Of a DNA stretch of 64,000 bases, positions 4,893 through 59,974 are shown piece by piece. This stretch comes from an uncultured Candidatus Saccharibacteria bacterium (GTDB taxonomy: Bacteria; Patescibacteriota; Minisyncoccia; Minisyncoccales; GWA2-38-27): the NCBI GenBank assembly GCA_964493085.1, contig CAZBLV010000013.1:2033-66032 (forward strand), read 5' to 3'. The stretch's first letter is position 1. Each line of letters starts with the position of its first letter. The translations under genes and the position numbers were made by a program. The notes beneath the pieces were generated by a model that worked only from the letters and a program-made list of their open reading frames with translations, did no database searches and had not been told where the DNA came from.

Positions 4893-5522
4893 ATGCAAGA
4901 AAATAAATGCAAAATTTGCAGAAGGCTCGGGACAAAACTTTTTCTTAAAGGAGACAGGTGTTTTTCTCAAAAATGCGCTTTGCTTAGAAAGTCTTATCCC
5001 CCTGGCCAGAAAAGCAAAAAACGAAGGAGGAATATTTCAGAATACGGAAAAGAGCTTCAGGAAAAACAAAAACTTAGAAGATGGTATCAGCTTAAAGAGG
5101 GACAATTTAGAAAATATGTCCTATCAGCCCTTGCAAAGAGGGGGCAGGTTGAAGACGCCGGAACTTTTCTTATTCAAAAACTGGAGAAAAGACTCGACAA
5201 TGTTATATTCAGAATGGGCATAACTCCTTCGCGCCACCGGGCCAGACAGATAGTGGGGCACGGCCATGTGCTGGTAAACGGAAGAAAGATAGATACGCCC
5301 TCTTACGAAGTAAAAAATGGAGACTTGGTTTCTCTTAAGCCTGCAAGCTTAGAAAAGGACGGCTTTAAGGATATTGCTTCTTTGCTAAAAAGATATCAGG
5401 CGCCGTCTTGGATTAATTTGGATAAAGAAAAAATAGAAGCAAAGATTATTGGAGACCCCTCTATGGAGGATGTTGTTCCTCCCGCTGAAGTCTCTGCGAT
5501 TTTTGAGTTTTACTCAAGATAA
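4893..5522 (+). CDS. rpsD: ribosomal protein S4
   Basis: N-terminal Cys cluster CKICRRLGTKLFLKGDRCFSQKC, and an S4 RNA-binding domain RLDNVIFRMGITPSRHRARQIVGHGHVLVNG. Confidence 0.95.
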   Translation: MQENKCKICRRLGTKLFLKGDRCFSQKCALLRKSYPPGQKSKKRRRNISEYGKELQEKQKLRRWYQLKEGQFRKYVLSALAKRGQVEDAGTFLIQKLEKRLDNVIFRMGITPSRHRARQIVGHGHVLVNGRKIDTPSYEVKNGDLVSLKPASLEKDGFKDIASLLKRYQAPSWINLDKEKIEAKIIGDPSMEDVVPPAEVSAIFEFYSR

Positions 5523-43103: not shown

Positions 43104-44105
43104 ATGCTAAAGAGTGCCAGCGGTGCGGCCGGCAAGACGTATTTGTTGACTCAGACGCTTTTTGAACATCTTTCCGCATTTAGTTGGATCGGCCTTCAGA
43201 TTCCCCCCCGAGATTTCATCGAAGAGATCGAGAAGAAGGTCGGCCAGCTTGTAGAAGAGATGTTCGCCGGGACCCAAGTCTCGGTGGAAACTCTTTCCGC
43301 TTCAGATTTATTCGGTGCGCTTGTTTCTTCTGTTCAGGACGTTAAGAAAAGCAATCCCGAACTCGTTTTCGTGAGCACTGCTCCTTTGATGGCCTACGAG
43401 GTAGAGGGAGAGTGTGTCCATCTTAATCGTCTTATTGATTGCTCGGGTGAACTTATCGGAATTGGCCCGCGTCCTGGTCATCCGAAAATAGAGGCGCAGT
43501 TGTCTTATCTTCCGAGGGGTGAAAAGAGCCTGGTTATCATTGAGGACGGATCCTTTACGGGAGGGACCATGCAGGCTCTCCTTGGGATCCTGGGCCCCGA
43601 AAGAGTTAGAACAATTGTTCTGGGCATTCTCTTTCCGAGAGCCGCTGATGTTCTTGAGAAGAATTTTGACGGTGAAGTAATCTGCAACAGGAACGAGAAG
43701 GACGATCTCATTGATTGGGTTCCTTCTCACGACTTTCTTCCTTTCATGCCTAACAACGGAAGGGTCGTCGGAAGTTTTCTGGGGAAGAGCTGTTTTCCCG
43801 TTTATCTTTATAACCATGCAAGTCTTTGTATGCCCTATATTCTTCCCTACGGCCGGCCCGAGGAATGGGCTTCCATCAGGGGAGAAAAAGCCAAGATCTG
43901 CCAGTTCAGCATACATTGTATTCAGCTGGCTCTGCAGATTTTCGAAGAGATGGAAAGAATTAACGGCAAGAAAATCACTGTTCAGGATGTGGTTTTCTCC
44001 AGTCCAAGGACCAGCCTTCCTATTGCCCCTAATCAGGGAGGATTTACCGAGCTAAGCGAGAGGGTGACATCGATTCTTTCAGAGGACATTAAGTACCTGG
44101 CCTAA
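43104..44105 (+). CDS. type I phosphoribosyltransferase-fold protein, substrate unknown
   Basis: Central PRPP-loop-like motif SLVIIEDGSFTGGTMQ, followed ~45 aa later by LIDWVPSHDF, reminiscent of the purine-PRT hood. There are unassigned ~130-aa N-terminal and ~110-aa C-terminal regions. Confidence 0.55.
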   Translation: MLKSASGAAGKTYLLTQTLFEHLSAFSWIGLQIPPRDFIEEIEKKVGQLVEEMFAGTQVSVETLSASDLFGALVSSVQDVKKSNPELVFVSTAPLMAYEVEGECVHLNRLIDCSGELIGIGPRPGHPKIEAQLSYLPRGEKSLVIIEDGSFTGGTMQALLGILGPERVRTIVLGILFPRAADVLEKNFDGEVICNRNEKDDLIDWVPSHDFLPFMPNNGRVVGSFLGKSCFPVYLYNHASLCMPYILPYGRPEEWASIRGEKAKICQFSIHCIQLALQIFEEMERINGKKITVQDVVFSSPRTSLPIAPNQGGFTELSERVTSILSEDIKYLA

Positions 44106-44127
44106 ACCGGCCCGGATTGGAGATAAG

Positions 44128-45528
44128 ATGACAAAACAGGAAAGAGTGGCGGCTATTAAGCCTGAGTTGATTGGAGGATTTCTAGATTTTCTCCCTTCGA
44201 CAATGATAGCGCGTCAAGCCATGTTAGATACTATTAGGGAAGTATATGAACGATTTGGTTTTGTTCCGCTTGAAACGCCAGCGGTTGAAAAACTTAGTGT
44301 CTTGACGGGGAATAACCCGAACTTTACGATGCTTCTTTACCGAACTGCTGTGGTGCGGGGGCTGAAAGGACTGGATCAATCCTCTTTTGAAGGAGAAGAT
44401 CAGATGGCCCTTCGTTTCGATCTAACGGTCCCCTTAGCTAGAGTAGTCTCTGCTTATCCGGATAGAATAACAAAACCTTTTAAACGGTATCAGGTGGGCA
44501 AGGTTTGGAGGGGCGAGAAACCCCAAGCCGGTCGTTTTAGAGAGTTTTATCAGTTTGATGCAGATATTGTGGGATCCCGCTCCATGATGGCGGATGCCGA
44601 AATAATCTGCCTGATGGCAGAAGTCATGAAGGCCTTGGGTCTTTCTGACTTCTTAATCAGGGTAAGCGATCGCAAAGTTCTAGAGGGGCTAAACTCTCTT
44701 CTCGGACTTACGGATGAAGCGCAGCGGACAGAGGTCATGCGTATTGTGGATAAGCGCGAGAAGGTAGGAAACGAGGAAGTAAAGATTGAGCTTTCTCGAG
44801 AGCCAGTTCACAAATATGATCCTGCTCCGAATCTTTCTTCCGAACAAGCAGATCGGGTAATGGATTTCCTGGACATTAAACAGGGCGGTGAAGAAGCCTT
44901 GGAGTCTGCAAGCAGCATAGTCGGCTCTGTGCCCATCGGGGCGAAAGGGATAGCCGAATTAAGGGAAATTGCTTCCTATCTTGATGTATTGGGTGTTTCC
45001 CGAGATAATTGGTGTATTGATCTTTCCATCGCACGGGGCTTGGATTACTATACTGGTCCAGTGTTTGAGACTACCCTGGGAGCTCTTCCTGAACTGGGAA
45101 GCGTCTATTCGGGTGGCCGGTTCGATGGTCTGACAGATCGTTTTATTCCTGGAAGCAATATACCGGGTACTGGCGCCTCTGTGGGTGTGGACCGTCTTTT
45201 CGCCGCTATGCAACAACTGGGGAAGTTCGAGGCCAAATTTACAGTAACGAAAGTTTTAATCGCTTCTCTCGATCCGAGCCTCAACAATGAGTACTTAAAG
45301 ATCGTGAAAGAGTTAAGAGAGGCTGGAATCCCCTCAGAAGTATACTTGGCTGAAGACCCCCTAAAGAAGCAGCTTGGCTACGCTGCTAAGAAAAGAATTC
45401 CCTTTATGATTATTCTTGGCCCTGACGAGTTCTCAAAGGGCGTGGTTGCCCTCAGAAACATGGACACCCGCTCCCAAGAAACAATGGGGCGCGAGGCCTT
45501 GACAGACAGACTGAAACAGGTAATATAA
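44128..45528 (+). CDS. hisS: histidyl-tRNA synthetase
   Basis: Motif 2 is GRFREFYQFDADIVG. Further motifs: GLDYYTGPVFE, GGRFDGL, and motif 3 GTGASVGVDRL. A C-terminal anticodon-binding domain is present. The N-terminal signature reads GGFLDFLP. Confidence 0.85.
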   Translation: MTKQERVAAIKPELIGGFLDFLPSTMIARQAMLDTIREVYERFGFVPLETPAVEKLSVLTGNNPNFTMLLYRTAVVRGLKGLDQSSFEGEDQMALRFDLTVPLARVVSAYPDRITKPFKRYQVGKVWRGEKPQAGRFREFYQFDADIVGSRSMMADAEIICLMAEVMKALGLSDFLIRVSDRKVLEGLNSLLGLTDEAQRTEVMRIVDKREKVGNEEVKIELSREPVHKYDPAPNLSSEQADRVMDFLDIKQGGEEALESASSIVGSVPIGAKGIAELREIASYLDVLGVSRDNWCIDLSIARGLDYYTGPVFETTLGALPELGSVYSGGRFDGLTDRFIPGSNIPGTGASVGVDRLFAAMQQLGKFEAKFTVTKVLIASLDPSLNNEYLKIVKELREAGIPSEVYLAEDPLKKQLGYAAKKRIPFMIILGPDEFSKGVVALRNMDTRSQETMGREALTDRLKQVI

Positions 45529-45563
45529 GCGAAGAACCTTTTCAAAACAAATAAGACGCAAGC

Positions 45564-45636
45564 GGGTACGTAACTCAACTGGGAGAGTACTGGATTGTGG
45601 ATCCAGGTGTTGCGGGTTCGAATCCCGTCGTACCCC
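45564..45636 (+). tRNA. tRNA-His (GUG), no genomically encoded G-1
   Basis: Acceptor GGGTACG/CGTACCC, D arm ACTC-AACTGGGA-GAGT, anticodon arm CTGGA-TTGTGGA-TCCAG, T arm GCGGG-TTCGAAT-CCCGT. Position 73 is C and position -1 (45563) is C. Confidence 0.8.
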
Positions 45637-45645
45637 GTTTGCTAA

Positions 45646-45681
45646 AGGGTGATATCTATTGATGTCACCCTCTTTTTTTTT
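45646..45681 (+). terminator. rho-independent terminator after tRNA-His
   Basis: AGGGTGA-(12-nt loop)-TCACCCT followed by a T-run of about 10 nt. Confidence 0.8.
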
Positions 45682-45725
45682 ATTGTTTTTAGGGTTAATT
45701 AATGATATTCTAAATTATTAGAGCT

Positions 45726-46913
45726 ATGGACAAAGTTCAAGAAATTATTAAAGAAGTGAGAAAAAACGGAGACAAGGCTGTGAAGAAATATACAGCTGTT
45801 TTTGATAAGGTAGAATTAGATAGATTTAAAGTAACCCGGAAAGACATAAAAAGAGCATACAAAGAAACGGGCCAAGAGGCAATTACGGCGCTGAAAGAGG
45901 CGGCCTCTAATATTAAAGAATTTGCCAGGAGGCAGTCTAAGGGGCTTAAAGACTTTGAATATCAAAAAAACGGAGTCACTTTGGGTCAAAAGATAGTCCC
46001 TCTCGAGAGAGTGGGGGTTTATGCCCCGGGAGGCAGATATCCTTTGCCCTCTACTGCCTTAATGGGGGTGATCCCGGCTAAGGTCGCAGGAGTAAAAGAT
46101 GTTATAGTCTGCTCTCCTAAGATAAAAGCTGTCACCATAGTGGCCTCAGATCTGGCAGGGGCAGAGGAAATCTATAACATAGGAGGCGTTCAGGCAATAG
46201 CCGCTATGGCCTACGGAACAGAGAGTATACCTAAAGTTGATAAGGTGGTGGGGCCTGGGAACGAGTATGTGACTGCCGCCAAAAAAGAAATATTCGGAGA
46301 CTGCGGAATAGATCTTTTGGCAGGCCCCAGCGAGGTTTTAATAATTGCAGACCAAGGGGCAGATTACAAGATAATAGCGGCTGATTTACTGGCTCAAGCA
46401 GAGCATGACGTGAAAGCTAAAATAATTCTTGTTTCAGATTCTGCCTCTTTGCTAAAAGAAGTAGAGGGGGAATTAAAAAATCAGCTGAAGAATATAGACA
46501 CCAGAGAGGTGGCCGGACCTTCCCTTGCTAATAAAAGGTTTGTAAAGGTAAAAAACATAGAAAAAGCCGTTGATGTGGCTAATGAAATTGCCCCCGAGCA
46601 CCTGGAGCTGCAAGTTAAAAGCCCAAAGAAGTATCTTAATAAATTAAAGAATTATGGATCTTTGTTTTTAGGAAAGTATTCAGGCGTGGTTTTTGGAGAT
46701 TACTGTTCGGGGACAAATCACATTCTGCCCACCGGAGGATCTGCTAAGTTTACGGGAGGACTCTCCGTTAAGGGATTCCTTAAAATATTAACTTATCAGC
46801 AATTGCAAAAAAGGGGCGGCGAAAGGTTAGCCGAGACCGCCAAAAAACTTGCTTCCGTAGAAGGGCTTTCCGCTCACAAAAAATCTGTAGAAATCAGGTT
46901 TGATCATGAATAA
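45726..46913 (+). CDS. hisD: histidinol dehydrogenase family protein
   Basis: [56 protein letters not shown]. Confidence 0.85.
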
Positions 46914-52679: not shown

Positions 52680-54558
52680 ATATCCCAATTTGATAAACCT
52701 TATTGCCGTTCAGTATCCAGGCCGTTTCTCCTGTTTCAGAGATTGCCAAATCCCTTAAATCAGTAAACTTATTGCTCCGGATTTGCTTGACCACCTGTGC
52801 TTTTTCTTTGTCGACAATTATTATTCTCTTTTGGCTCGGCTCTAAAAGATAAAGATAGGGGAGGGCAGCGTTTGTGGTTATCCTTTCTATTTTTTCAATA
52901 AAGGGGAAAATGTCTAACTTAACCTCTTTTTTTAAGACGCCCTGGTAGAATTCCCAGATCTTGTTTTCTTCGCCCAAAATCCAGACAGATCCGTCTATGG
53001 CCAAAGATTTTGGTTTGGAGCAGGAAAAATCATCTTCCAGCCAGTTTCGGGGAACTCCCCATTGAAGTTTTGCTACGGACGGGTATTTTACAATCTGGCA
53101 GTCTCGGGTTAGGAAATAAATGCTGGACCAGTAGCTGACCGCGTCTACAAATTCTTCCTTCCAGGGCTCTATGCTTTTTGAAATCCAGCCCTGTTCATCA
53201 AGGGAAATAATATTTTTCGGCGGAGAATAAAAGATTGCTTTATTCTGGTAATTGGCAGCCAGGCTAATCGGTTGGTTGCTGGGCACAAACTGCTCTTTTG
53301 GATATATTTGATATACGCCCCCTTGACTCTGCAAATAAACAGAATCTCCTGCTGCCAAAATACTAACAGCGTTTGGCCCTTGAGAATCTATTTCCGACAC
53401 AATAACCGGGTTTTCTATCTCCTCTAGATTGTTAAGGCGGAACAACTTTTGCTCCGTGGTTTCTTTAAGGTCCTCAACCCTGGGAGTCGAGGGAAGCAGA
53501 GAGATTTCTTTCCAGGCCTGTTTTAATAAATCATTGGCTTCTTCTTTTTGGTCAAAAAGAGAATAGTTTTCCGCTTCTGCTATCTTTTTTTCCACCTGGC
53601 TTATTTTCTTTTCCGCTTCCGCTTTCTTGTTTTCTTGGCTTTGCCTGAAGATCAAAAATCCCAGAAGCAAAATCGCTAAAAGAAGTAATATCAAAATCAC
53701 TTTTTTAGAAAGCCGGAAAGGAACGGAAATTCTCTTTTTTGTTCTTTTTTTTGGCGACTTCTTAAATGTTTTTCTCTTTAGTCTTCTGATGGGAGCCAGG
53801 ACAGGATCAAAAACGCCTTTCCAAGAAAAACTTTTCTGATTTTGAAACAGCATAGTGGTTGGACTTTCTTTTTTCAGCTCCTTTTTAAAAGCCAGAATCA
53901 TAAGAGCTCCAGCCGTCTCTGCCCCGTCTTCTTTTTTAAAAAGGGAAGAGGGAAGTATTTCTTTGATTTCCTTTTCTTCTATTTCTCCTCCCTTGTCAGC
54001 TAGTCGGGATAGCAGCCCCTTTTTTGACAGAAAATCGTAGACTTTTTCCGTCATCATCATCATTAAATCGCTCTGTTCTATTTTTCCTGAAATTACATTG
54101 AAAAAAACTTTCAGCGGGTAAGGATCTATTTCTTGCTTTTCTAAACCTCCGCCTATGTCTATAATATTCCCTGCTCTGGCCAGCAGGATTTTTATATTAC
54201 CTGTTTTGGTGAAACTTAATTCCAGCCCCTTTATCGAGAGGACGGCAAATCCAAGATTACCTAGCCAATGGACATTGTTCCGCTGAACCTCTTCTGACAG
54301 AAAAGAATTAGCCGACCTTAGCGAGTTAGTTAAAGAGGTTTCCGGCTTTCCGACCAAAGAAGAGTAAAAGTTTTTTTTGATATTTTCTGCTAAATCATTT
54401 AAGAGCCTTAGGTCTTGGGGAAGGGAAGATTTCACTTCTCCTAAGGCGTATAGTCCTCCCATTCTTTTTTCTGAGGCTTTCTCCGGGCGGTAGATGAAGG
54501 TGTCGAAAGAATAGTCCTTTTTTGCTTTTGGATTGAAGTGGAGTTCGAATATCTGCAT
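52678..54558 (-). CDS. hypothetical bitopic membrane protein (626 aa)
   Basis: A ~270-aa cytoplasmic N-terminal domain, a central TM helix (VILILLLLAILLLGFLIF), a coiled-coil stretch, and a C-terminal repeat-like beta-rich region. No motif recognised. Confidence 0.6.
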   Translation of the reverse strand: MQIFELHFNPKAKKDYSFDTFIYRPEKASEKRMGGLYALGEVKSSLPQDLRLLNDLAENIKKNFYSSLVGKPETSLTNSLRSANSFLSEEVQRNNVHWLGNLGFAVLSIKGLELSFTKTGNIKILLARAGNIIDIGGGLEKQEIDPYPLKVFFNVISGKIEQSDLMMMMTEKVYDFLSKKGLLSRLADKGGEIEEKEIKEILPSSLFKKEDGAETAGALMILAFKKELKKESPTTMLFQNQKSFSWKGVFDPVLAPIRRLKRKTFKKSPKKRTKKRISVPFRLSKKVILILLLLAILLLGFLIFRQSQENKKAEAEKKISQVEKKIAEAENYSLFDQKEEANDLLKQAWKEISLLPSTPRVEDLKETTEQKLFRLNNLEEIENPVIVSEIDSQGPNAVSILAAGDSVYLQSQGGVYQIYPKEQFVPSNQPISLAANYQNKAIFYSPPKNIISLDEQGWISKSIEPWKEEFVDAVSYWSSIYFLTRDCQIVKYPSVAKLQWGVPRNWLEDDFSCSKPKSLAIDGSVWILGEENKIWEFYQGVLKKEVKLDIFPFIEKIERITTNAALPYLYLLEPSQKRIIIVDKEKAQVVKQIRSNKFTDLRDLAISETGETAWILNGNKVYQIGI

Positions 54559-54632
54559 TAATATATTATAACTAGCAGAAACAGAAAAGCAAAAGGTTTA
54601 CTCTTAACAAGCAAAGTTATAAAATGGTAGCG

Positions 54633-54707
54633 GGACGGTTGGCTCAGCGGCAGAGCGCTTCGTTCACATCGAAGAGGACGCAGGTTCGATTCCTGCACCG
54701 TCCACCA
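54633..54707 (+). tRNA. tRNA-Val (CAC) with encoded CCA
   Basis: Acceptor GGACGGT/ACCGTCC, D arm GCTC-AGCGGCA-GAGC, anticodon arm CTTCG-TTCACAT-CGAAG, T arm GCAGG-TTCGATT-CCTGC, discriminator A, then CCA (54705-54707). Confidence 0.85.
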
Positions 54708-54732
54708 AACAGGATTCTGCAAAAGACAAAGA

Positions 54733-54807
54733 GGTTTGCTCACCGCGCCTGCGGGCGCGGCTCGCAAGGAACGAACCGCCTCATTTCCGAAAAAATTTCG
54801 CGGCGAA
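54733..54807 (+). repeat. repeat element copy A (inverted partner at 56561-56643)
   Basis: Its parts are GGTTTGC, the hairpin CCGCGCC-tgcg-GGCGCGG (54743-54760), CCGCCTC (54776-54782), and the 24-mer TTTCCGAAAAAATTTCGCGGCGAA (54784-54807). Confidence 0.8.
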
Positions 54808-54838
54808 TTAAAGGAAAATTTTTTATTTTTGTTTGTTG

Positions 54839-54870
54839 CAGAAATTCTGATGAATTTCTGTTTTTGTTTT
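54839..54870 (+). terminator. rho-independent terminator downstream of tRNA-Val and repeat A
   Basis: A perfect 9-bp stem CAGAAATTC-tgat-GAATTTCTG followed by TTTTTGTTTT. Confidence 0.75.
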
Positions 54871-54980
54871 AAAAACTTTATTTTTTCTATGTTTTTTGGT
54901 AATGTGCGTTAGAGGAGGGTCAAGCTGGTGCTTGGCTCAATTTGTACCTCGAAAACCAAATACAGGAAAGGATAATCGTC

Positions 54981-55742
54981 ATGATCAGTAACGCAACGTC
55001 AGACAGACTCGCCCTTGAAGTTTTGAGGGCCGACACGCTGGAACTCAGAGCGGTCCCAAAGAAGGTGACCAACGAAGAGGTAGATAGTCTACCTCTCAAC
55101 GTGCAGCCGTTTCTTTACGCCTCGGGCAACTGGGGGCCTGGTTATCTCATGATTAAGGGTTTGGTCGGCAATAAGCCGCTGATCAGATGCCTTGGTCGCT
55201 ACTTGGCGCTCGAAATCGCCGAGAAATGGCCGACCGAAATCGATTTTGTTGCTGGCAACGTTACCGGCGGCATGATCCCGGGCTGGTTGATCAGCGAAGA
55301 GTTGGAAGTCCTTCTCGGTAAGCGGATTCCATTCGTTTATATCCGGGAACTTCGGAAGACCGGCGGTCAGAAGGAACTCATCACCGGCTACCAAAAGAAT
55401 CGGGAAATTCCTCCCGGCTCCAGCGGTTTGGATATGGAGGAACTGGTTAACTTCGCCCAGACCATTGCCAACGGCGCGATTTGCCTTCGCGAAGTGGGAT
55501 TCGTCTGTACGAAAGGTGCTTGCATCCTTTACTACGACAATCCTGTTGCGAACAAGGATTTGGCCGCCGCCGGAATCGAGATGGTTTCGTTGCTTACCCT
55601 CCCAAGGATCATCGACGTGGCCGAGCGGTTTGGTACACACCCCAAGGAACTTTTGGTCGAGTACCGCGAGTTCCTGAAAAATCCGTTGCAATGGCAGGCC
55701 GATCGCGGTCTGGCGCATGTAGAAAGAGGGGGTACGAAATGA
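54981..55742 (+). CDS. orotate phosphoribosyltransferase-family protein, divergent PRPP-binding loop
   Basis: ATG 54981 has an AAAGGA Shine-Dalgarno. It is colinear with PyrE: FLYASGNWGPGY (compare FxLxSGxxSPxY), DFVAGNVTGGMIPG, FVYIRELRKTGGQKELITG, and the C-terminal LVEYREFLKNP. The canonical VDDVxTxG loop reads MEELVNFAQT. Confidence 0.7.
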   Translation: MISNATSDRLALEVLRADTLELRAVPKKVTNEEVDSLPLNVQPFLYASGNWGPGYLMIKGLVGNKPLIRCLGRYLALEIAEKWPTEIDFVAGNVTGGMIPGWLISEELEVLLGKRIPFVYIRELRKTGGQKELITGYQKNREIPPGSSGLDMEELVNFAQTIANGAICLREVGFVCTKGACILYYDNPVANKDLAAAGIEMVSLLTLPRIIDVAERFGTHPKELLVEYREFLKNPLQWQADRGLAHVERGGTK

Positions 55743-56431
55743 AAAATCCATTTCTTTTCGTGGCACTCGACGACCTTGGCAACAAGGAATGGGAAACCCT
55801 GGAGGTTGTTCGAGAATTGGATCAAGTACCCGGCAATTTCGGGTATAAAATCAATCTTGACTGCCTAATGGCTGGAGGCGTCAGTGCGACTATCCGTAAA
55901 CTGCTAGTTTCGCGTCCGATCTTTGCCGACACTAAGACATGGAACGGCAAAAGGACAATGGCCGACCTCGCCAAGATGCTGGTTGACGCCAGCGTGGACT
56001 ACTTTAATGTCTGGGTTCAAGCGGACGATCAGCTCGCAGGCGCGGTCAAGGCCACCGAGGGTTCTAAGACCAAGATTCTCGGAGTTACCGTGCTCACTCA
56101 TTACAGTGATGATTGGTGCAGGATGTATTTCCGCCGCTCGCTTGAGGAGACAGTTGTTTTTCTTACTCAGCGAGCAAAGGATCTCGGTTTGCACGGCGTT
56201 GTTTTGCCGGGAACTTGCTTGCCAGCGGTCATGGACAGCGATCGGATCAAGACCGTGCCCGGAATCCGTATGGAGGATTTCAAGGACGATAGGCACAAGC
56301 AGGAGGTCACTCCGGAATTCGCAACTCAAAACGGAGCGGACATAGTCGTGTGCGGAAGCCCGATCATGAAGGTTTCCGACAAGGCGAGCGCGCTTCGTCA
56401 GGTTCTTGCGCGATTGACTGTCACACAGTGA
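55739..56431 (+). CDS. orotidine-5'-phosphate decarboxylase-family protein (short bacterial type), altered catalytic motif
   Basis: ATG 55739 overlaps the upstream stop (ATGA). Motifs: FVALD, YKINLD, FADTKTWNGKRT (DxKxxN instead of DxKxxD), VTVLTH, VPGIR, and IVVCGSPI. Confidence 0.7.
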   Translation: MKNPFLFVALDDLGNKEWETLEVVRELDQVPGNFGYKINLDCLMAGGVSATIRKLLVSRPIFADTKTWNGKRTMADLAKMLVDASVDYFNVWVQADDQLAGAVKATEGSKTKILGVTVLTHYSDDWCRMYFRRSLEETVVFLTQRAKDLGLHGVVLPGTCLPAVMDSDRIKTVPGIRMEDFKDDRHKQEVTPEFATQNGADIVVCGSPIMKVSDKASALRQVLARLTVTQ

Positions 56432-56506
56432 ACAACAAGAGGTCCAGCGGCACCTCGTCATAACAAGACAAAGCCGCTTTTTTCTTTGCCAAAACTTTCC
56501 TTTAAA

Positions 56507-56522
56507 TCAGAAAATTTTCTGA
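56507..56522. promoter_or_regulatory. perfect 16-bp palindrome TCAGAAAATTTTCTGA
   Basis: Exact dyad symmetry in the 357-nt gap between the two island modules. It could be an operator-like site or a hairpin. Confidence 0.35.
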
Positions 56523-56560
56523 AATAAGTTGTGATTAACTTATAGTTTTTATTGTTAAAG

Positions 56561-56643
56561 TTCGCCGCGAAATTTTTTCGGAAAGCGAGGGCGAGGCGGG
56601 ATTTTGCGAAACGCCGCAGGCGTTTCTCTCAAAAAAGGTTTGC
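56561..56643 (-). repeat. repeat element copy B1 (inverted copy of 54733-54807)
   Basis: 56561-56584 is the exact reverse complement (24/24) of 54784-54807. GAGGCGG (56593-56599) and the hairpin GAAACGCC-gca-GGCGTTTC (56608-56626) sit in equivalent positions. Confidence 0.8.
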
Positions 56644-56676
56644 GTATTTTTAATTATAGTCCACCAAATTGAATTA

Positions 56677-56708
56677 GTCGCCTCGTTTGAGAAAAATTTT
56701 TTGGGAGG
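56677..56708. repeat. repeat element B2 (inverted partner at 59509-59542)
   Basis: AGTCGCCTCGTTTGAGAAAAATTTTTTGGGAGG. Its reverse complement aligns by hand with 59509-59542 at about 28 of 33 positions. Confidence 0.6.
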
Positions 56709-56788
56709 ACTTGAAAAATACAGGTCAAATGATAATCTAAATTCGGTAAAGTGTTCTTTCAAAATTACATAAACAGGAGGAAAATGAG

Positions 56789-58180
56789 ATGAAAACACGC
56801 GACCAGTTCGACAGTCTCTCACCGGTTGACTACCGATACTGGGATGAAGAAGTGGCGAAGTATCTCTCCGAGAACGGGTTTACCCGCTACAAGCTTCTCG
56901 TGGAGCTTGCGCTTGTGAGAGCGCTTCACCGCCGTGGAATTTGTCCCGAAGTTGCCGTCAAAGAAGTTGAGACGGCGTGCGGCCGAGTTACGGCCGCCGA
57001 AGTTTACAAGGAAGAAGACCGAATCCGGCACGACATCCGTGCGCTCGTGAACTGCATCCGCGCCGAAGTTAGCGATGTAGCGAAGCCGTACGTCCATATG
57101 ACGGCGACTTCGTTTGATATTGTTGATCCGGCGAACGCGGCTCGCTACAAGGATGCGATCGAGAAAGTACTTGTTCCGTCGCTTACCAAGCTGGAAGGAG
57201 TGCTCATCGCTACCACGCTCCGCGAAGTAGAGACGGTGCAAGTTGGCAGAACTCACGGACAGCACGCCGTACCGATTACGTTCGGATTCGCACTAGCCGG
57301 ATATGTAAGCCGTCTCGGCAACTCTATCGAAAAATTGAGTACGCTCGCCAAAGAATTGCCGGGTAAGTTTTCCGGAGCGGTCGGAGCGTACAACGCCTCC
57401 TCGCTGTTCTTTAATGATCCGGAGAGCTTTGAGGCGGAAGTCCTCGCCGAACTTGGATTAATTGCGGCGGAACACTCGACGCAGATCGTGCCGCCGGAGG
57501 CGTTGACGCGCCTCTTCTGCGAAGTTACGATTGTGGCGGGCATTTTCGCCAACTTGTCCGACGACATGCGGAATCTTCAACGGACAGAGATCGGAGAAGT
57601 GGGCGAAGAGTTTGAAGCGGCGCAGGTCGGTTCCTCGACCATGCCACAGAAACGCAACCCTATCAACTTTGAGAACGCCAAGAGTTGTTGGAAAATCGTC
57701 GCGCCGCGAATCTTGACGGTGTTCATGGACCAAATTAGCGAACACCAGCGTGACCTTACCAATTCCGCCTCCGCGCGGACTTACGGCGAGATTGTCGCAT
57801 ATGTGGTTTCGATCGCAAAGCGACTCACGCGCACCATGAAGAAGCTCACTGTTGACCGCGTTAACTTGGAGCGCAACCTCGCTATGCAGAAGGGCTTGGT
57901 GGTTGCGGAGCCGCTCTACATTATCCTCGCCGCGCTTGGACACCCCGACGCTCACGAGAAGGTGCGGATGCTCACACTTCAAGCCCAACACGAGGTGCGA
58001 CCACTCGAAGAAGTTGTTTTCGGCGATGTGGAGATACAGGGTTATCTTAAACGGATGACTCCCTACCAACGGCAGATTATCTCTAACCCGTCTCTATATA
58101 CGGGCATCGCCGCCAAGAAAGCGAAAGTGGTCGCGGAAAGATGGCAGCAAAAACTCAATCTCAATAGAAAGGAGAGATAG
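56789..58180 (+). CDS. purB: adenylosuccinate lyase
   Basis: SPVDYRY at the N-terminus; GRTHGQHAVPITFG; fumarate-lyase signature GSSTMPQKRNPINFEN. AGGAGG Shine-Dalgarno upstream. Confidence 0.85.
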   Translation: MKTRDQFDSLSPVDYRYWDEEVAKYLSENGFTRYKLLVELALVRALHRRGICPEVAVKEVETACGRVTAAEVYKEEDRIRHDIRALVNCIRAEVSDVAKPYVHMTATSFDIVDPANAARYKDAIEKVLVPSLTKLEGVLIATTLREVETVQVGRTHGQHAVPITFGFALAGYVSRLGNSIEKLSTLAKELPGKFSGAVGAYNASSLFFNDPESFEAEVLAELGLIAAEHSTQIVPPEALTRLFCEVTIVAGIFANLSDDMRNLQRTEIGEVGEEFEAAQVGSSTMPQKRNPINFENAKSCWKIVAPRILTVFMDQISEHQRDLTNSASARTYGEIVAYVVSIAKRLTRTMKKLTVDRVNLERNLAMQKGLVVAEPLYIILAALGHPDAHEKVRMLTLQAQHEVRPLEEVVFGDVEIQGYLKRMTPYQRQIISNPSLYTGIAAKKAKVVAERWQQKLNLNRKER

Positions 58181-58181
58181 A

Positions 58182-59456
58182 GTGAACAGCACAGTGCAGT
58201 TACTGGCAGAGGGAAAGACGAAGAAAATCCTGACAGCGGAAGCTCCAGGACAAGTGATCGTCGAATCCAAGGACGATCTTACCGCTGGAGATGGTGCGAA
58301 ACACGACATCATCGCTGACAAGGCATCACTCTCGAACAGAACTACGTCGAATGTGTTCCGGCTTCTCAAGGCATGCGGCATTCCGGTCGCTTTCCTTGAT
58401 GGGGTGGACGAGACGCGATTCCTCGCAGAGCAGTGCGACATGATTCCCTACGAAGTGGTTGTCAGGCGAGAGGCGCACGGTTCGTTCCTCAAGCGTTATC
58501 CGGGAATTCAAAAGGGGCATATTTTTCCGCGCCTTCTGTTGGAGTTCTTTCTGAAGACTTCTGGCAGGAAGTGGAAAGACGCCGATCTCCCGAAGGACGA
58601 TCCCTTCATGCGTTTCGATGAGAATCGTGCTTTGCTGTATCTGCCCGATCAGCCAATCCATCAACAGACACCGTTTCTGATTCTTGACGATTTTCCTTTG
58701 CGGGAGTCGCCTGACGGAATCAAGCAAATCAGCAAAGTTGCCGTCAAGACCTTTCTCATTCTGGAGAAAGCGTGGCAACTCGTTGGGCGGAGACTGGTGG
58801 ACTTCAAGGTGGAGTTCGGAACGAACACTGCGGGAGAGGTACGGCTCGCTGACGTGATCGACAACGATTCGTGGCGGGTGCTTGACGAAGGAAAATACAT
58901 CGACAAGCAACTTTACCGCGACGGCGCGGATCTCAACATCGTCACAGCGAAGTACCGACTGGTAGCAGAGTTAACCAGTAACTTCAGCCTACCGCGCCAA
59001 CAGATTATTCTCTGGCGAGCTTCAGCGTCCGATGACCTGAAGGCATTTGAGGACGCTATCGCGGCTTACGGTGCGAACAAGGCTTGCGATGTGGAAATCG
59101 CAACTTGCTCTCTTCACAAGGATCCGATTCGAGCGTGCGAAGAAGTCGCTAGACTGGTGCAGGAAGTTCCCAACTCCGTAGTGATTGTCTTCTGCGGAAG
59201 AAGTAATGGAGCGGGGCCGACTCTGTCCACGCAATGCACTGTGCCGGTAATCACGGTTCCAGCAACGTGGCGGGAGTTCCCCGAAGATGTGTGGTCATCG
59301 CTCCGCACGCCGAGCGAGACGCCGGTCGTTACAATCCTCGATCCTAAGAACGCTGTTCTTTCGGCGCTTCAAATTCTTGCGATGGGAAACCCACGGCTCT
59401 ATGCCGAGCTTCGCTTTCGGCAAGAGAAGCGTCTCCACAATATTATTAGACTCTGA
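58182..59456 (+). CDS. bifunctional SAICAR synthetase / AIR carboxylase fusion (PAICS-like, PurC-PurE)
   Basis: GTG start 1 nt after the purB stop, with an AAGGAG Shine-Dalgarno. The N-terminal half has AEGKTKKIL, SKDDLTAGDGAKHD, GSFLKRYPG and LADVIDNDSWR. The C-terminal half has PurE-like WRASASDD, CGRSNGAGPTLS and DVWSSLRTP. Confidence 0.8.
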   Translation: MNSTVQLLAEGKTKKILTAEAPGQVIVESKDDLTAGDGAKHDIIADKASLSNRTTSNVFRLLKACGIPVAFLDGVDETRFLAEQCDMIPYEVVVRREAHGSFLKRYPGIQKGHIFPRLLLEFFLKTSGRKWKDADLPKDDPFMRFDENRALLYLPDQPIHQQTPFLILDDFPLRESPDGIKQISKVAVKTFLILEKAWQLVGRRLVDFKVEFGTNTAGEVRLADVIDNDSWRVLDEGKYIDKQLYRDGADLNIVTAKYRLVAELTSNFSLPRQQIILWRASASDDLKAFEDAIAAYGANKACDVEIATCSLHKDPIRACEEVARLVQEVPNSVVIVFCGRSNGAGPTLSTQCTVPVITVPATWREFPEDVWSSLRTPSETPVVTILDPKNAVLSALQILAMGNPRLYAELRFRQEKRLHNIIRL

Positions 59457-59467
59457 CGAGCTGACGA

Positions 59468-59508
59468 AGGGGTATTACCAGAAATGGCAATACCCCTCTT
59501 TTGTTTTT
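59468..59508 (+). terminator. rho-independent terminator ending the island operon
   Basis: An AGGGGTATT(a)CC-agaaat-GG(c)AATACCCCT hairpin followed by TCTTTTGTTTTT. Confidence 0.75.
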
Positions 59509-59547
59509 CCACCCAAAAATTTTTCTCGAACGAGAGCGGCTCGCGGG
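59508..59547. repeat. repeat element C (partner of B2) with a degenerate copy of the tRNA-Val 3' end
   Basis: TCCACCCAAAAATTTTTCTCGAACGAGAGCGGCTCGCGGG. It shares GCGGCTCGC with copy A (54757-54765). Confidence 0.6.
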
Positions 59548-59569
59548 TTTTATTTTTCTTTTTTTCAAG

Positions 59570-59974
59570 ATGAGATATAATGAAACAATGGATAATTTTA
59601 TTCTAGCTCGCTACCTTGCTTGGCAACTATATGATGTCCCTCGGGCTTTGCTGGCTGCCTGGAAGAACTTTCTCCGATTTAATCTAGACTACTTTTCAAT
59701 ACCTGTGCTTTTAAGGACCTACTTTTCTTATTGGAGAAAATATTCTTCTTCTTACGGCAGGGGATTTAATATGGGACGCTATTTTGAAACATTTATTTTT
59801 AATATGATGTCTCGGATCATAGGAGCTATTCTCCGCACTTTTTTTATAATCTTAGGCCTGATTTCAGAGCTTTTTATAATAATAGCCGGAGCGGCAGCGC
59901 TTTTAGTATGGCTAGTTTCTCCCTTAATATTGATTTTTGGCTTATTTTTGGGAATTAAAATGATTATTTTCTAA
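59570..59974 (+). CDS. small hypothetical membrane protein
   Basis: ATG 59570 (MRYNETMDNF...) or ATG 59588. Two C-terminal TM helices. Its stop overlaps the start of the Clp-like gene (TAATG). Confidence 0.55.
   Translation: MRYNETMDNFILARYLAWQLYDVPRALLAAWKNFLRFNLDYFSIPVLLRTYFSYWRKYSSSYGRGFNMGRYFETFIFNMMSRIIGAILRTFFIILGLISELFIIIAGAAALLVWLVSPLILIFGLFLGIKMIIF

Follow-up and report, generated by a model that had tools for sequence, protein, structure and literature searches.

Two nucleotide-synthesis gene pairs framed by related inverted repeats at the 3′ end of a tRNA-Val gene in an uncultured Patescibacteria bacterium

How did four genes for nucleotide synthesis, set in two pairs that are each framed by their own inverted repeats, come to stand directly behind a tRNA-Val gene in an uncultured Candidatus Saccharibacteria bacterium? 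The locus lies in a stretch of 64,000 nt (contig CAZBLV010000013.1 of assembly GCA_964493085.1; this whole stretch is ‘the window’ in what follows, and coordinates are counted from its first letter) that has the gene content of Patescibacteria, the Candidate Phyla Radiation (CPR), that is, ribosomal proteins, aminoacyl-tRNA synthetases, and MreB, at 42% GC. The first pair, which we call cassette 1, encodes a PyrE-like and a PyrF-like protein (genes g1 and g2); the second, cassette 2, encodes PurB and a PurC-PurE fusion (g3 and g4). We report that the region ~54706–59545 is an islet that was acquired horizontally and entered the genome at the tRNA-Val 3′ end, and that each gene pair is a separate unit circulating among Patescibacteria. 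Our preferred explanation, to which we assign a probability of about one half, is that the islet consists of two integrase-less cassettes that were recombined into the 3′ end of tRNA-Val by a trans-acting enzyme; from the arrangement described below, we infer recombination at a short core sequence, a role for the inverted arms in that reaction, and the trans-acting enzyme itself.

The host gene is tRNA-Val(CAC) (54633–54707, plus strand, identified by ARAGORN and Rfam); its CCA end is encoded, and its 3′ end is the left junction of the two-cassette island (54706–59545, plus strand), which is delimited by GC and by comparison with an empty site. The empty site is found in locus L032, in which the gene order is L10, L12, a hypothetical gene on the minus strand (hyp630), tRNA-Val(CAC), 43 nt, hyp128, and ClpC; this ClpC is 76% identical to the product of the ClpC-like gene to the right of the island in the window, and the island is absent. 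DNA homology between L032 and the window reaches the end of the tRNA (54705, in ...GTCCA/C) and restarts at ~59545–59576; because the homology stops and restarts at these points, we conclude that ~4.85 kb have been inserted at the 3′ end of tRNA-Val, as a first-pass annotation of the window had proposed. Expressed as spacing, ~4.85 kb lie between the tRNA-Val 3′ end and the next promoter in the window, compared to 43 nt in L032. The left limit of the island falls between 54706 and 54746, and the right limit is placed at 59545 to within about 15 nt. After the tRNA, the empty site reads CAATTATATTT and the window reads CCAAACAGG; the tRNA of the filled site has an encoded CCA, whereas the tRNA-Val(CAC) at the matching syntenic position in L032 does not. 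The four island genes are also the compositional outliers of the window, with 52.5–54.6% GC vs 42 ± 4% in the other 58 open reading frames (ORFs). ARAGORN additionally calls a permuted transfer-messenger RNA (‘tmRNA*’) at 54611–55366 that overlaps both tRNA-Val and the start of g1; we take this to be a false call.

The view that the two gene pairs are separate modules is borne out by related loci, in which each occurs alone or in other contexts in other Patescibacteria. For cassette 1, positions 54881–56664 (a block that comprises the promoter-like region, leader, both genes, 3′ region, and the right inverted arm, arm B, and that ends at TATAGTCCAC) are 86.6% DNA-identical to four independently assembled contigs (L020–L023, one of them named Candidatus Falkowbacteria) in which the neighbors differ from those in the window, with tRNA-Val(GAC) upstream on the other strand and HSP20 downstream. 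Further copies of cassette 1 are present in L033 (86% identity) and L034 (84%, from the core of the left arm, arm A, inward). Cassette 2, with both purB and purC-purE, is 81–82% identical in L030 and L010; in other contexts, purB is found alone (L026, L028, L029, and L035), as is purC-purE (L003 and L004). Relatives of g1 are 65–94% identical across Patescibacteria, and relatives of g3 are 75–89% identical across Parcubacteria lineages; dozens of relatives of g1 and g3 at 80–94% identity are found in named Parcubacteria lineages, whereas for the host ClpC no more than three relatives exceed 60% identity. Because so many relatives at 80–94% identity stand against a 60% ceiling for ClpC, we conclude that horizontal transfer carries the cassettes from lineage to lineage inside the radiation. 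Their GC content is 52–56% in all hosts checked, against 38–46% in the flanks, with no sign of adjusting to the host. When homologous islands are aligned, the inverted-repeat brackets are seen to accompany the cassettes from genome to genome.

Several independent assemblies break at or near the cassette arms: L033 starts at the equivalent of 54825, L020–L023 start 160–520 nt upstream of g1 (with L023 differing from L020 in the upstream sequence), and L034 ends inside g2 with a 29-nt misjoined piece. These contig breaks are consistent with repeats or with population variation at the borders.

Assembly breaks near the arms, together with the sharp GC step at the borders of the island, could also be read as signs of an assembly chimera, that is, DNA from a higher-GC organism joined at a conserved tRNA, with repeats that are chance matches. 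We find this explanation hardly credible: both junctions are located within one 131.9-kb contig (MLSed_10000020 of JGI metagenome 3300001533), high-GC cassettes are found in low-GC Patescibacteria contigs from independent assemblies and several samples (four for L020–L023), and the scores of the repeats, which follow, are far above those of shuffled controls.

Cassette 1 is flanked by arm A (54746–54811, plus strand; GC hairpin at 54744–54761) and arm B (56555–56622, minus strand; GC hairpin at 56604–56622). The first-pass annotation had described a perfect 24-nt inverted repeat around this gene pair with similarity running outward, and this description is correct: the core of arm A (54784–54807) matches the reverse complement of the core of arm B (56561–56584) at 24/24 positions, and the 24-mer is found nowhere else in the window. 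The length of ~75–80 nt that was given for the two copies is too large, with 66–68 nt measured; over this length, 55 of 73 aligned columns are identical, and the shared stretch contains CGCCTGCGG (the GC hairpin), TCGCAA, and CCGCCTC. The local-alignment score of this pair is 50, vs 18.2 ± 2.3 (maximum 30) in 200 shuffles (z = 13.6). Cassette 2 is flanked by arm C (56676–56709, plus strand; defined by alignment and by a C-like arm upstream of purB in L030) and arm D (59508–59541, minus strand; defined by alignment and by D-like arms in relatives), the latter containing TCCACCCAAA. An inverted pair around the purB/PAICS-like genes had likewise been noted; the register first proposed gives 28/35 identical columns, and the best register gives 30/35 (score 41 vs 19.2 ± 2.3; z = 9.4). 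The core common to the arms is CCTCGCTTTCCGAAAAAATTTCGCGGCGAA.

All four arms belong to one motif family of ~35 nt, approximately CCTCGC-N-GAAAAAATTT-NNN-GGCG, that is extended to ~70–110 nt in cassette 1. Read in one orientation, A(+), B(−), C(+), and D(−) share CGCCTC-(N)-TTT-NN-GAAAAA-W-TTT-NNN-GG-N-G, and matches between arms of different cassettes are 27/42 (A vs C), 27/41 (A vs D), and 28/44 (B vs C). The arms are located outside the transcription units of both cassettes: arm A is followed by a terminator-like hairpin (54838–54871) and then by the promoter-like region of cassette 1, arm B follows the hairpins 3′ of g2, arm C is 5′ of a promoter-like TTGAAA, and arm D is 3′ of the g4 terminator. 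As single strands, the individual arms and the B+C doublet fold no better than shuffled sequence (z from −0.2 to −1.6); the arms look like double-stranded DNA sites rather than RNA elements or terminators. Two other descriptions of the arms were considered and rejected. They are not coding sequence, because the small ORFs over them are low-complexity or contain stop codons and an 83-nt indel in orthologous arms is not a multiple of three; arms A and D are also not terminal repeats of the whole island, since they share family-level likeness only (z = 2.2).

Repeats that are short, partly GC-rich, and intergenic, two of which (B and C, separated by ~80 nt) make up an inverted doublet, might be members of a dispersed family related to repetitive extragenic palindromes (REP) or their doublets (REPIN) that falls at the module borders by accident. 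The first-pass annotation had itself raised the case of a ubiquitous REP-like element, and we looked for its copies. A profile of the four arms finds no further copy in the 64-kb window (the next match has E = 0.028), and in 330 kb (the window and 33 related loci), a profile built from 13 arms of eight genomes recovers those arms alone; the exact 24-mer is absent from reference genomes representing 185,579 species by one genome each. A degenerate arm pattern has no match in viral contigs, nor were relatives of g1 found there, and the whole island has none in plasmids or phages. Rfam, used with gathering thresholds on the whole window and also at E ≤ 10 on 54500–59700, returns only tRNAs, the L10 leader, and noise, with the arms and leaders in no family. 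Unlike REP or REPIN sequences, then, the arms have no dispersed copies in the sequence searched, form no hairpin doublet (z = −1.1 for the fold of B+C), and are accompanied by no REP-associated Y1 transposase (RAYT) in the window, and they move with the cassettes. We consider a dispersed family very improbable and regard it, along with the assembly chimera, as effectively excluded.

The two arms of one cassette are more alike than orthologous arms across genomes. In the window, A and B are both of the short form and share the perfect 24-nt core, and orthologous cores elsewhere differ at 1–4 positions. Arm B is retained with cassette 1 in L020–L023 and L033, where it contains the extra 83-nt, GC-rich segment; the left arm in L034 is an inverted copy of these long-form right arms (L020/L033) over ~105 nt. 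For cassette 2, D-like arms directly follow the purC-purE terminator in L010, L017, L008, L012, and L030. L030 additionally has a C-like arm 5′ of purB, and its two arms share the variant AAAGATTGCTRGYAAAA (17/20; z = 4.4), unlike arms C and D in the window, which share AAAAATTTTT(T)GGGWGGA. Because the arm pairs in L030 and in the window each share their own variant, the arms appear to co-vary within genomes; judged from these alignments, either gene conversion between the inverted copies or selection on a paired site may be responsible. P0035 was examined as a third locus with both arms of cassette 2 and was rejected because purB is alone there.

At the left junction, the last 8 nt of tRNA-Val (including CCA) plus AA form the first copy of a 10-nt direct repeat, GTCCACCAAA (54700–54709, plus strand). 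The second copy (56659–56668) is located in the gap between the cassettes, inside a decayed tRNA-Val-like 3′ fragment (GGTTTGCG...TATAGTCCACCAAA; T-arm and acceptor; 56637–56668, plus strand) that ends cassette 1 and is retained in L020 and L033. These are the only two copies on either strand of the 64 kb, and both are exactly 102 nt outside the inner edges of the A and B cores; in 5000 shuffles, an exact match as long as these 10 nt arose 21 times between the tRNA end and the 357-nt inter-cassette gap. The first-pass annotation had reported copies of the tRNA end at all three boundaries and had cassette 2 bracketed by them. The exact copy in the gap stands; the third, degenerate copy is part of arm D, because TCCACCCAAA (59508–59517) is the inner part of that arm, the mirror image of TTTGGGAGGA in arm C, and D-type arms also stand behind purC-purE in genomes where that position lacks a tRNA. 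The right junction of the island contains no GTCCAC, so the bracketing of cassette 2 by tRNA ends falls away.

The middle junction is tRNA-like in other genomes as well. The last ~30 nt of cassette 1 (GGTTTGCGTATTTTTAATTATAGTCCAC in the window, GGTTCGCGCATTTTCAATTATAGTCCAC in L020, with GTCTAC in L033) resemble a decayed tRNA T-arm and acceptor end. Junction 2 and the adjoining downstream sequence, TATAGTCCACCAAATTGAATTAGTCGCCTC, agree at 24/30 positions with the genuine tRNA-Val(GAC) of L020, taken from its 3′ end into the trailer (TATTGTCCACCAAAAACGATTTGTCGCCTC; score 30 vs a maximum of 25 in 1000 shuffles), so that in two genomes the start of a C-type arm, GTCGCCTC, comes after a tRNA-Val end. 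The sequence found at equal spacing behind tRNA-Val(TAC) in L034, ATTTTTTGGGTGG, matches arm C at 12/13 positions and arm D at 11/11, and a GTCCAC occurs 9 nt outside the left arm of that locus. In all three contexts in which an armed cassette 1 has enough flanking sequence, a tRNA-Val gene is found within a few hundred bases (anticodons CAC, GAC, and TAC). Of the proposal that the modules are tandem integrations at a tRNA, the insertion, the separate units, and the tRNA-like middle junction are therefore retained; the third repeat and the simple host-tRNA scar are not. The 10-nt repeat is not simply a scar of the host tRNA, because other genomes, too, have its first six bases, GTCCAC (GTCTAC in one of them), where cassette 1 ends on the right.

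Similar sequences appear elsewhere among these loci. In L002, a Gracilibacteria contig, a sequence like the 3′ part of a minus-strand tRNA (..GGTCCTAGGTTCGATCCCTAGTGCGCGCA) is located at ~1700–1760, 3′ of purC-purE; it is not called by ARAGORN and may be another tRNA fragment at a cassette border. Two of the loci that contain purB alone have tRNA-Arg(CCG): in L026 (5861–5937), it is 63 nt upstream of purB, and in L035 (8356–8430), it is ~960 nt downstream of purB on the other strand. This hints at an association with particular tRNA genes for other versions of the cassette genes as well.

The inverted arms around both cassettes, neither of which contains a transposase, together with a 10-nt repeat whose two copies flank cassette 1 at equal distances (102 nt from the inner core edge on either side), would also be expected of a non-autonomous transposon similar to a mobile insertion cassette (MIC) or a miniature inverted-repeat transposable element (MITE), with the transposase encoded elsewhere; GTCCACCAAA would then be a 10-bp target duplication with a preference for GTCYAC, in line with the GTCCAC or GTCTAC beside the same end of the cassette in L020 and L033 and beside the left arm in L034. 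The structure of the arms argues otherwise. Their best-conserved part is internal, 78–102 nt from the repeat, and the outermost 36 nt of A and B, which adjoin the direct repeat, show no significant similarity (p = 0.23) and fail as terminal repeats whether compared as inverted or as direct sequences. In addition, no duplication flanks cassette 2, L020 has no matching left duplication, no further arms, solo or paired, are found in the 64 kb or in the 330 kb of related loci, and no transposase is encoded in the window. A second direct repeat near the arm ends (AAAGAGGTTTGC / AAAAAGGTTTGC) was considered as a target duplication and rejected, since its right copy is cassette-borne in L020 and L033. 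On balance, we judge a transposon of this type to be rather improbable.

What, then, moved the cassettes? Domain searches of the ~60 ORFs in the window, the island included, identified no recombinase, integrase, resolvase, or transposase, in agreement with the first-pass annotation, which had seen no transposase or integrase in the island. The genes called beside the cassettes in other loci include no recombinase, and neither the window nor these neighboring genes revealed a related, integrase-bearing helper element. The lack of a recombinase near any copy is what would be expected if DNA had been taken up and incorporated by homologous or homology-facilitated illegitimate recombination, with the tRNA serving as the anchor and the arms as passengers; the 10-nt repeat would then be microhomology or a remnant of the donor tRNA, and the arms, whose likeness gene conversion would maintain, would be insulators, regulatory or protein-binding sites, or decayed relics. 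This explanation accommodates the tRNA-Val beside cassette 1, the tRNA-Arg(CCG) near purB in L026 and L035, the decayed tRNA-Val fragment that moves with cassette 1, the insulator-like position of the arms just outside the terminators and promoters, and the occurrence of related, arm-less gene pairs in new contexts. It does not lead one to expect that a single inverted end motif would be common to two unrelated cassettes and be found nowhere else, that the repeat would be symmetric around cassette 1, or that the arms would have neither a terminator-like nor an otherwise unusual fold. We consider uptake unlikely.

If the cassettes were instead recombined into place by a trans-acting enzyme, as we prefer, the insertion at the 3′ end of tRNA-Val would have occurred by recombination in the short core GTCCAC(CAAA) that is present at junctions 1 and 2, with the cassettes entering either successively or as a pre-assembled pair. 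The enzyme would be supplied in trans because the cassettes encode none. The arms would be its recognition arms, each one half of a quasi-palindromic site that integration takes apart: in a circular form of the cassette, arm B, the core, and arm A would together form a quasi-palindrome of ~214 bp, and splitting it would produce inverted-repeat brackets together with direct repeats of the core. The likeness of the two arms would be maintained by gene conversion or by selection.

Several observations weigh against this reading. The core copies do not form a complete series of left and right attachment sites (attL/attR), because neither GTCCAC nor another copy of the core is found at the right junction of the island; in L020, no matching left copy of the core was found, and the GTCCAC at the right end of cassette 1 (GTCTAC in L033) is followed by unrelated sequence. 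The tRNA-Val gene in L034 is ~100 nt from GTCCAC, and the one in L020 is on the opposite strand. The arms have neither the dyad symmetry of Xer or integrase core sites nor an unusual single-strand fold, and the dissimilarity of the outer 36 nt of A and B, adjacent to the supposed core, counts here as it does for a transposon. Both arms of cassette 2 are seen in only two genomes, as are both arms of cassette 1, and one of the latter two is L020, in which the left arm is badly decayed (z = 1.8). Inverted brackets are also not a general trait of these gene pairs: they are absent in L024, L025, L013, L026, L028, L029, L035, and others, and more distant homologous gene pairs (≤79% DNA identity) have none, so the arms mark a particular, apparently mobile sub-lineage of these operons. 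Finally, the sequence searched for an enzyme amounted to half the contig and a minor fraction of the genome.

Within the islet, each cassette is a self-contained expression unit with its own promoter-like region and terminators. The products of g1–g4 all score below the curated NCBIfam cut-offs. In cassette 1, g1 (54981–55742, plus strand) encodes a divergent orotate phosphoribosyltransferase-like protein of 253 aa (matches to orotate phosphoribosyltransferases in the PDB with E = 1e-7; below the NCBIfam cut-offs for pyrE), and g2 (55739–56431, plus strand) encodes an orotidine 5′-monophosphate decarboxylase-like protein of 230 aa (Pfam PF00215, E = 4e-20; below the NCBIfam cut-off for pyrF). 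In cassette 2, g3 (56789–58180, plus strand) encodes a 463-aa, adenylosuccinate-lyase-like PurB (Pfam Lyase_1 and ASL_C), and g4 (58182–59456, plus strand) encodes a 424-aa fusion of phosphoribosylaminoimidazole-succinocarboxamide (SAICAR) synthetase (PurC; PF01259) and aminoimidazole ribonucleotide (AIR) carboxylase/mutase (PurE; PF00731). The transcript of cassette 2 would end at an intrinsic terminator (59469–59507, plus strand) that is supported by compensatory changes in relatives. The closest relatives of the PurC-PurE fusion outside Patescibacteria (L005, L006, and L009) are from metagenome-assembled genomes of Alphaproteobacteria and Bdellovibrionales, with ~55% identity.

Upstream of g1, the terminator-like hairpin between arm A and the promoter (GCAGAAATTCTGATGAATTTCTGT followed by a T-run; 54838–54871, plus strand) is kept in L033 and L034 and may insulate cassette 1 from read-through out of tRNA-Val. 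The promoter-like region and structured 5′ leader that follow (54881–54980, plus strand) mark the start of the block shared with L020–L023. The promoter-like sequence is of the TTGCTT-17-TAATGT type and precedes a leader of ~75 nt, GCGTTAGAGGAGGGTCAAGCTGGTGCTTGGCTCAATTTGTACCTCGAAAAC, with counterparts in L020 (430–524), L033 (60–159), and L034 (~4900–5000); a leader hairpin, GTCAAGC/GCTTGGC, has compensatory changes in L033 (GTCGAGC/ACTCGGC) and L020 (GCTTGAC) and no match in Rfam. From these sequence comparisons, the leader is a candidate for a new cis-regulatory leader or riboswitch of a pyrimidine operon. Downstream of g2, the 3′ region with terminator-like hairpins (56432–56554, plus strand; alignment with L020) begins with 60 nt past the stop codon (56432–56491) that are identical to L020 (1967–2026) at 59/60 positions; because this exceeds the identity of the coding region to the Falkowbacteria contigs (86.6%), the alignment suggests a functional structure, a 3′ untranslated region or terminator, after g2.

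Apart from the islet, the window contains a second cluster at 43104–46913, in which a weak Pribosyltran-domain protein (GC 0.487), a HisS-like protein, tRNA-His, and histidinol dehydrogenase (E = 5e-157) are grouped; for a Patescibacteria genome, such a biosynthetic remnant is unusual, and the arm motif is absent from it.

CPR bacteria have tiny genomes with patchy biosynthesis and few recognized mobile elements, and the movement of metabolic genes among them is poorly understood. Here, four steps of nucleotide synthesis are packaged as two portable units that have their own expression signals and a common, specific end motif and that are >80% DNA-identical across lineages whose housekeeping proteins are at most 60% identical. 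A bolder proposal, which we offer tentatively and with the odds against it, is that the islet belongs to an undescribed Patescibacteria cassette system in which metabolic operons, to date those for purine and pyrimidine steps, are framed by an inverted site of ~35 bp and are moved to the 3′ ends of tRNA genes, with the recombinase provided from elsewhere in the genome or by a helper and with insertion occurring singly or in stacks, above all at tRNA-Val. Such a system would account for the exchange of metabolic modules between reduced genomes of different phylum-level lineages. Should the end motif prove to be a recombination site, it would provide a searchable signature for further cassettes and a handle on the enzyme that moves them, so that gene flow in this uncultivated branch would be directly testable.

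How does the islet compare with known systems? MICs (e.g., those derived from IS231) carry passenger genes between inverted repeats, lack an internal transposase, and may be flanked by a direct repeat; their repeats are the 20–50-bp terminal repeats of a known insertion sequence (IS) and are located at the tips, target duplications are present at every copy, and a genome usually contains several copies. The cassettes resemble MICs and MITEs in their passenger genes between inverted repeats, the lack of an internal transposase, and perhaps the direct repeat around cassette 1; unlike them, they have no clear repeats at the tips (the ends of cassette 2 being placed to about ±15 nt), no extra copies in the 64 kb or in the 330 kb of related loci, and no transposase in the window. 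With integron cassettes, they share the nature of small mobile units in arrays and, on our reading, an imperfectly palindromic recombination site for each unit and an enzyme encoded outside the cassette. Integron cassettes, however, are mostly promoterless and have one attC, at the 3′ end, whose two halves are adjacent instead of bracketing the gene; their core sites are GTTRRRY, and an intI/attI platform is located next to them. None of this is found here; the arms bracket the genes and contain no GTTRRRY, the cassettes have their own promoter-like regions, and the window encodes no integrase.

The tandem ssrA-specific islands of Dehalococcoides reportedly are much larger and each contain their own site-specific recombinase, and they are not known to have inverted arms. 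The likeness is in metabolic islands stacked at the 3′ end of a small-RNA gene with direct repeats at their borders (PMC3146451).

The first-pass annotation knew of no described system with this layout; there are, however, two precedents, the accretion of cis-mobilizable elements (CIMEs; PMC5704250) and dif modules (PMC6449649). CIMEs are integrase-less, retain their att sites, and are stacked at tRNA genes by accretion (Streptococcus, ICESt1-type; PMC5704250). The cassettes are like CIMEs in having no integration or transfer genes, att-like repeats at two of three junctions, a tandem arrangement at a tRNA 3′ end, and an enzyme that would act in trans (PMC5704250). The correspondence is partial: the islet is inserted at a tRNA 3′ end, as CIMEs are, and it has no third att copy. 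CIMEs are decayed integrative conjugative or integrative mobilizable elements of several to tens of kb with direct att repeats, whereas the cassettes are metabolic operons of 2–3 kb, and CIMEs are not known for long inverted arms that are common to unrelated cassettes.

The dif (pdif) modules of Acinetobacter plasmids are recombinase-less and are bracketed by short, inverted sites on which a host recombinase is presumed to act (PMC6449649, PMC13141974). The cassettes are likewise small, recombinase-less modules with inverted bracketing sites (55/73 for A/B and 30/35 for C/D) that are found side by side and in varied contexts. The sites themselves are different. A pdif site is 28 bp long and consists of 11-bp arms for XerC and XerD, separated by a 6-bp spacer (PMC6449649, PMC13141974); by inspection of the alignments, the arm cores CCGAAAAAATTTCGCGG and GAGAAAAATTTTTTGGG have no pdif-type dyad and no ATAA/TTAT of the ATAA-N6-TTAT type. 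Moreover, pdif sites are shared by neighboring modules, alternate in orientation, and are located on plasmids, whereas each cassette here has its own pair of arms on a chromosome beside a tRNA; arms B and C are separate, 53 nt apart, and the homology with L020 ends between them, at 56664. The cassettes are thus probably CIME- or dif-module-like integrase-less elements; if the cassette system proposed above is real, it parallels dif modules and integron cassettes in function, with a different site architecture and a different target.

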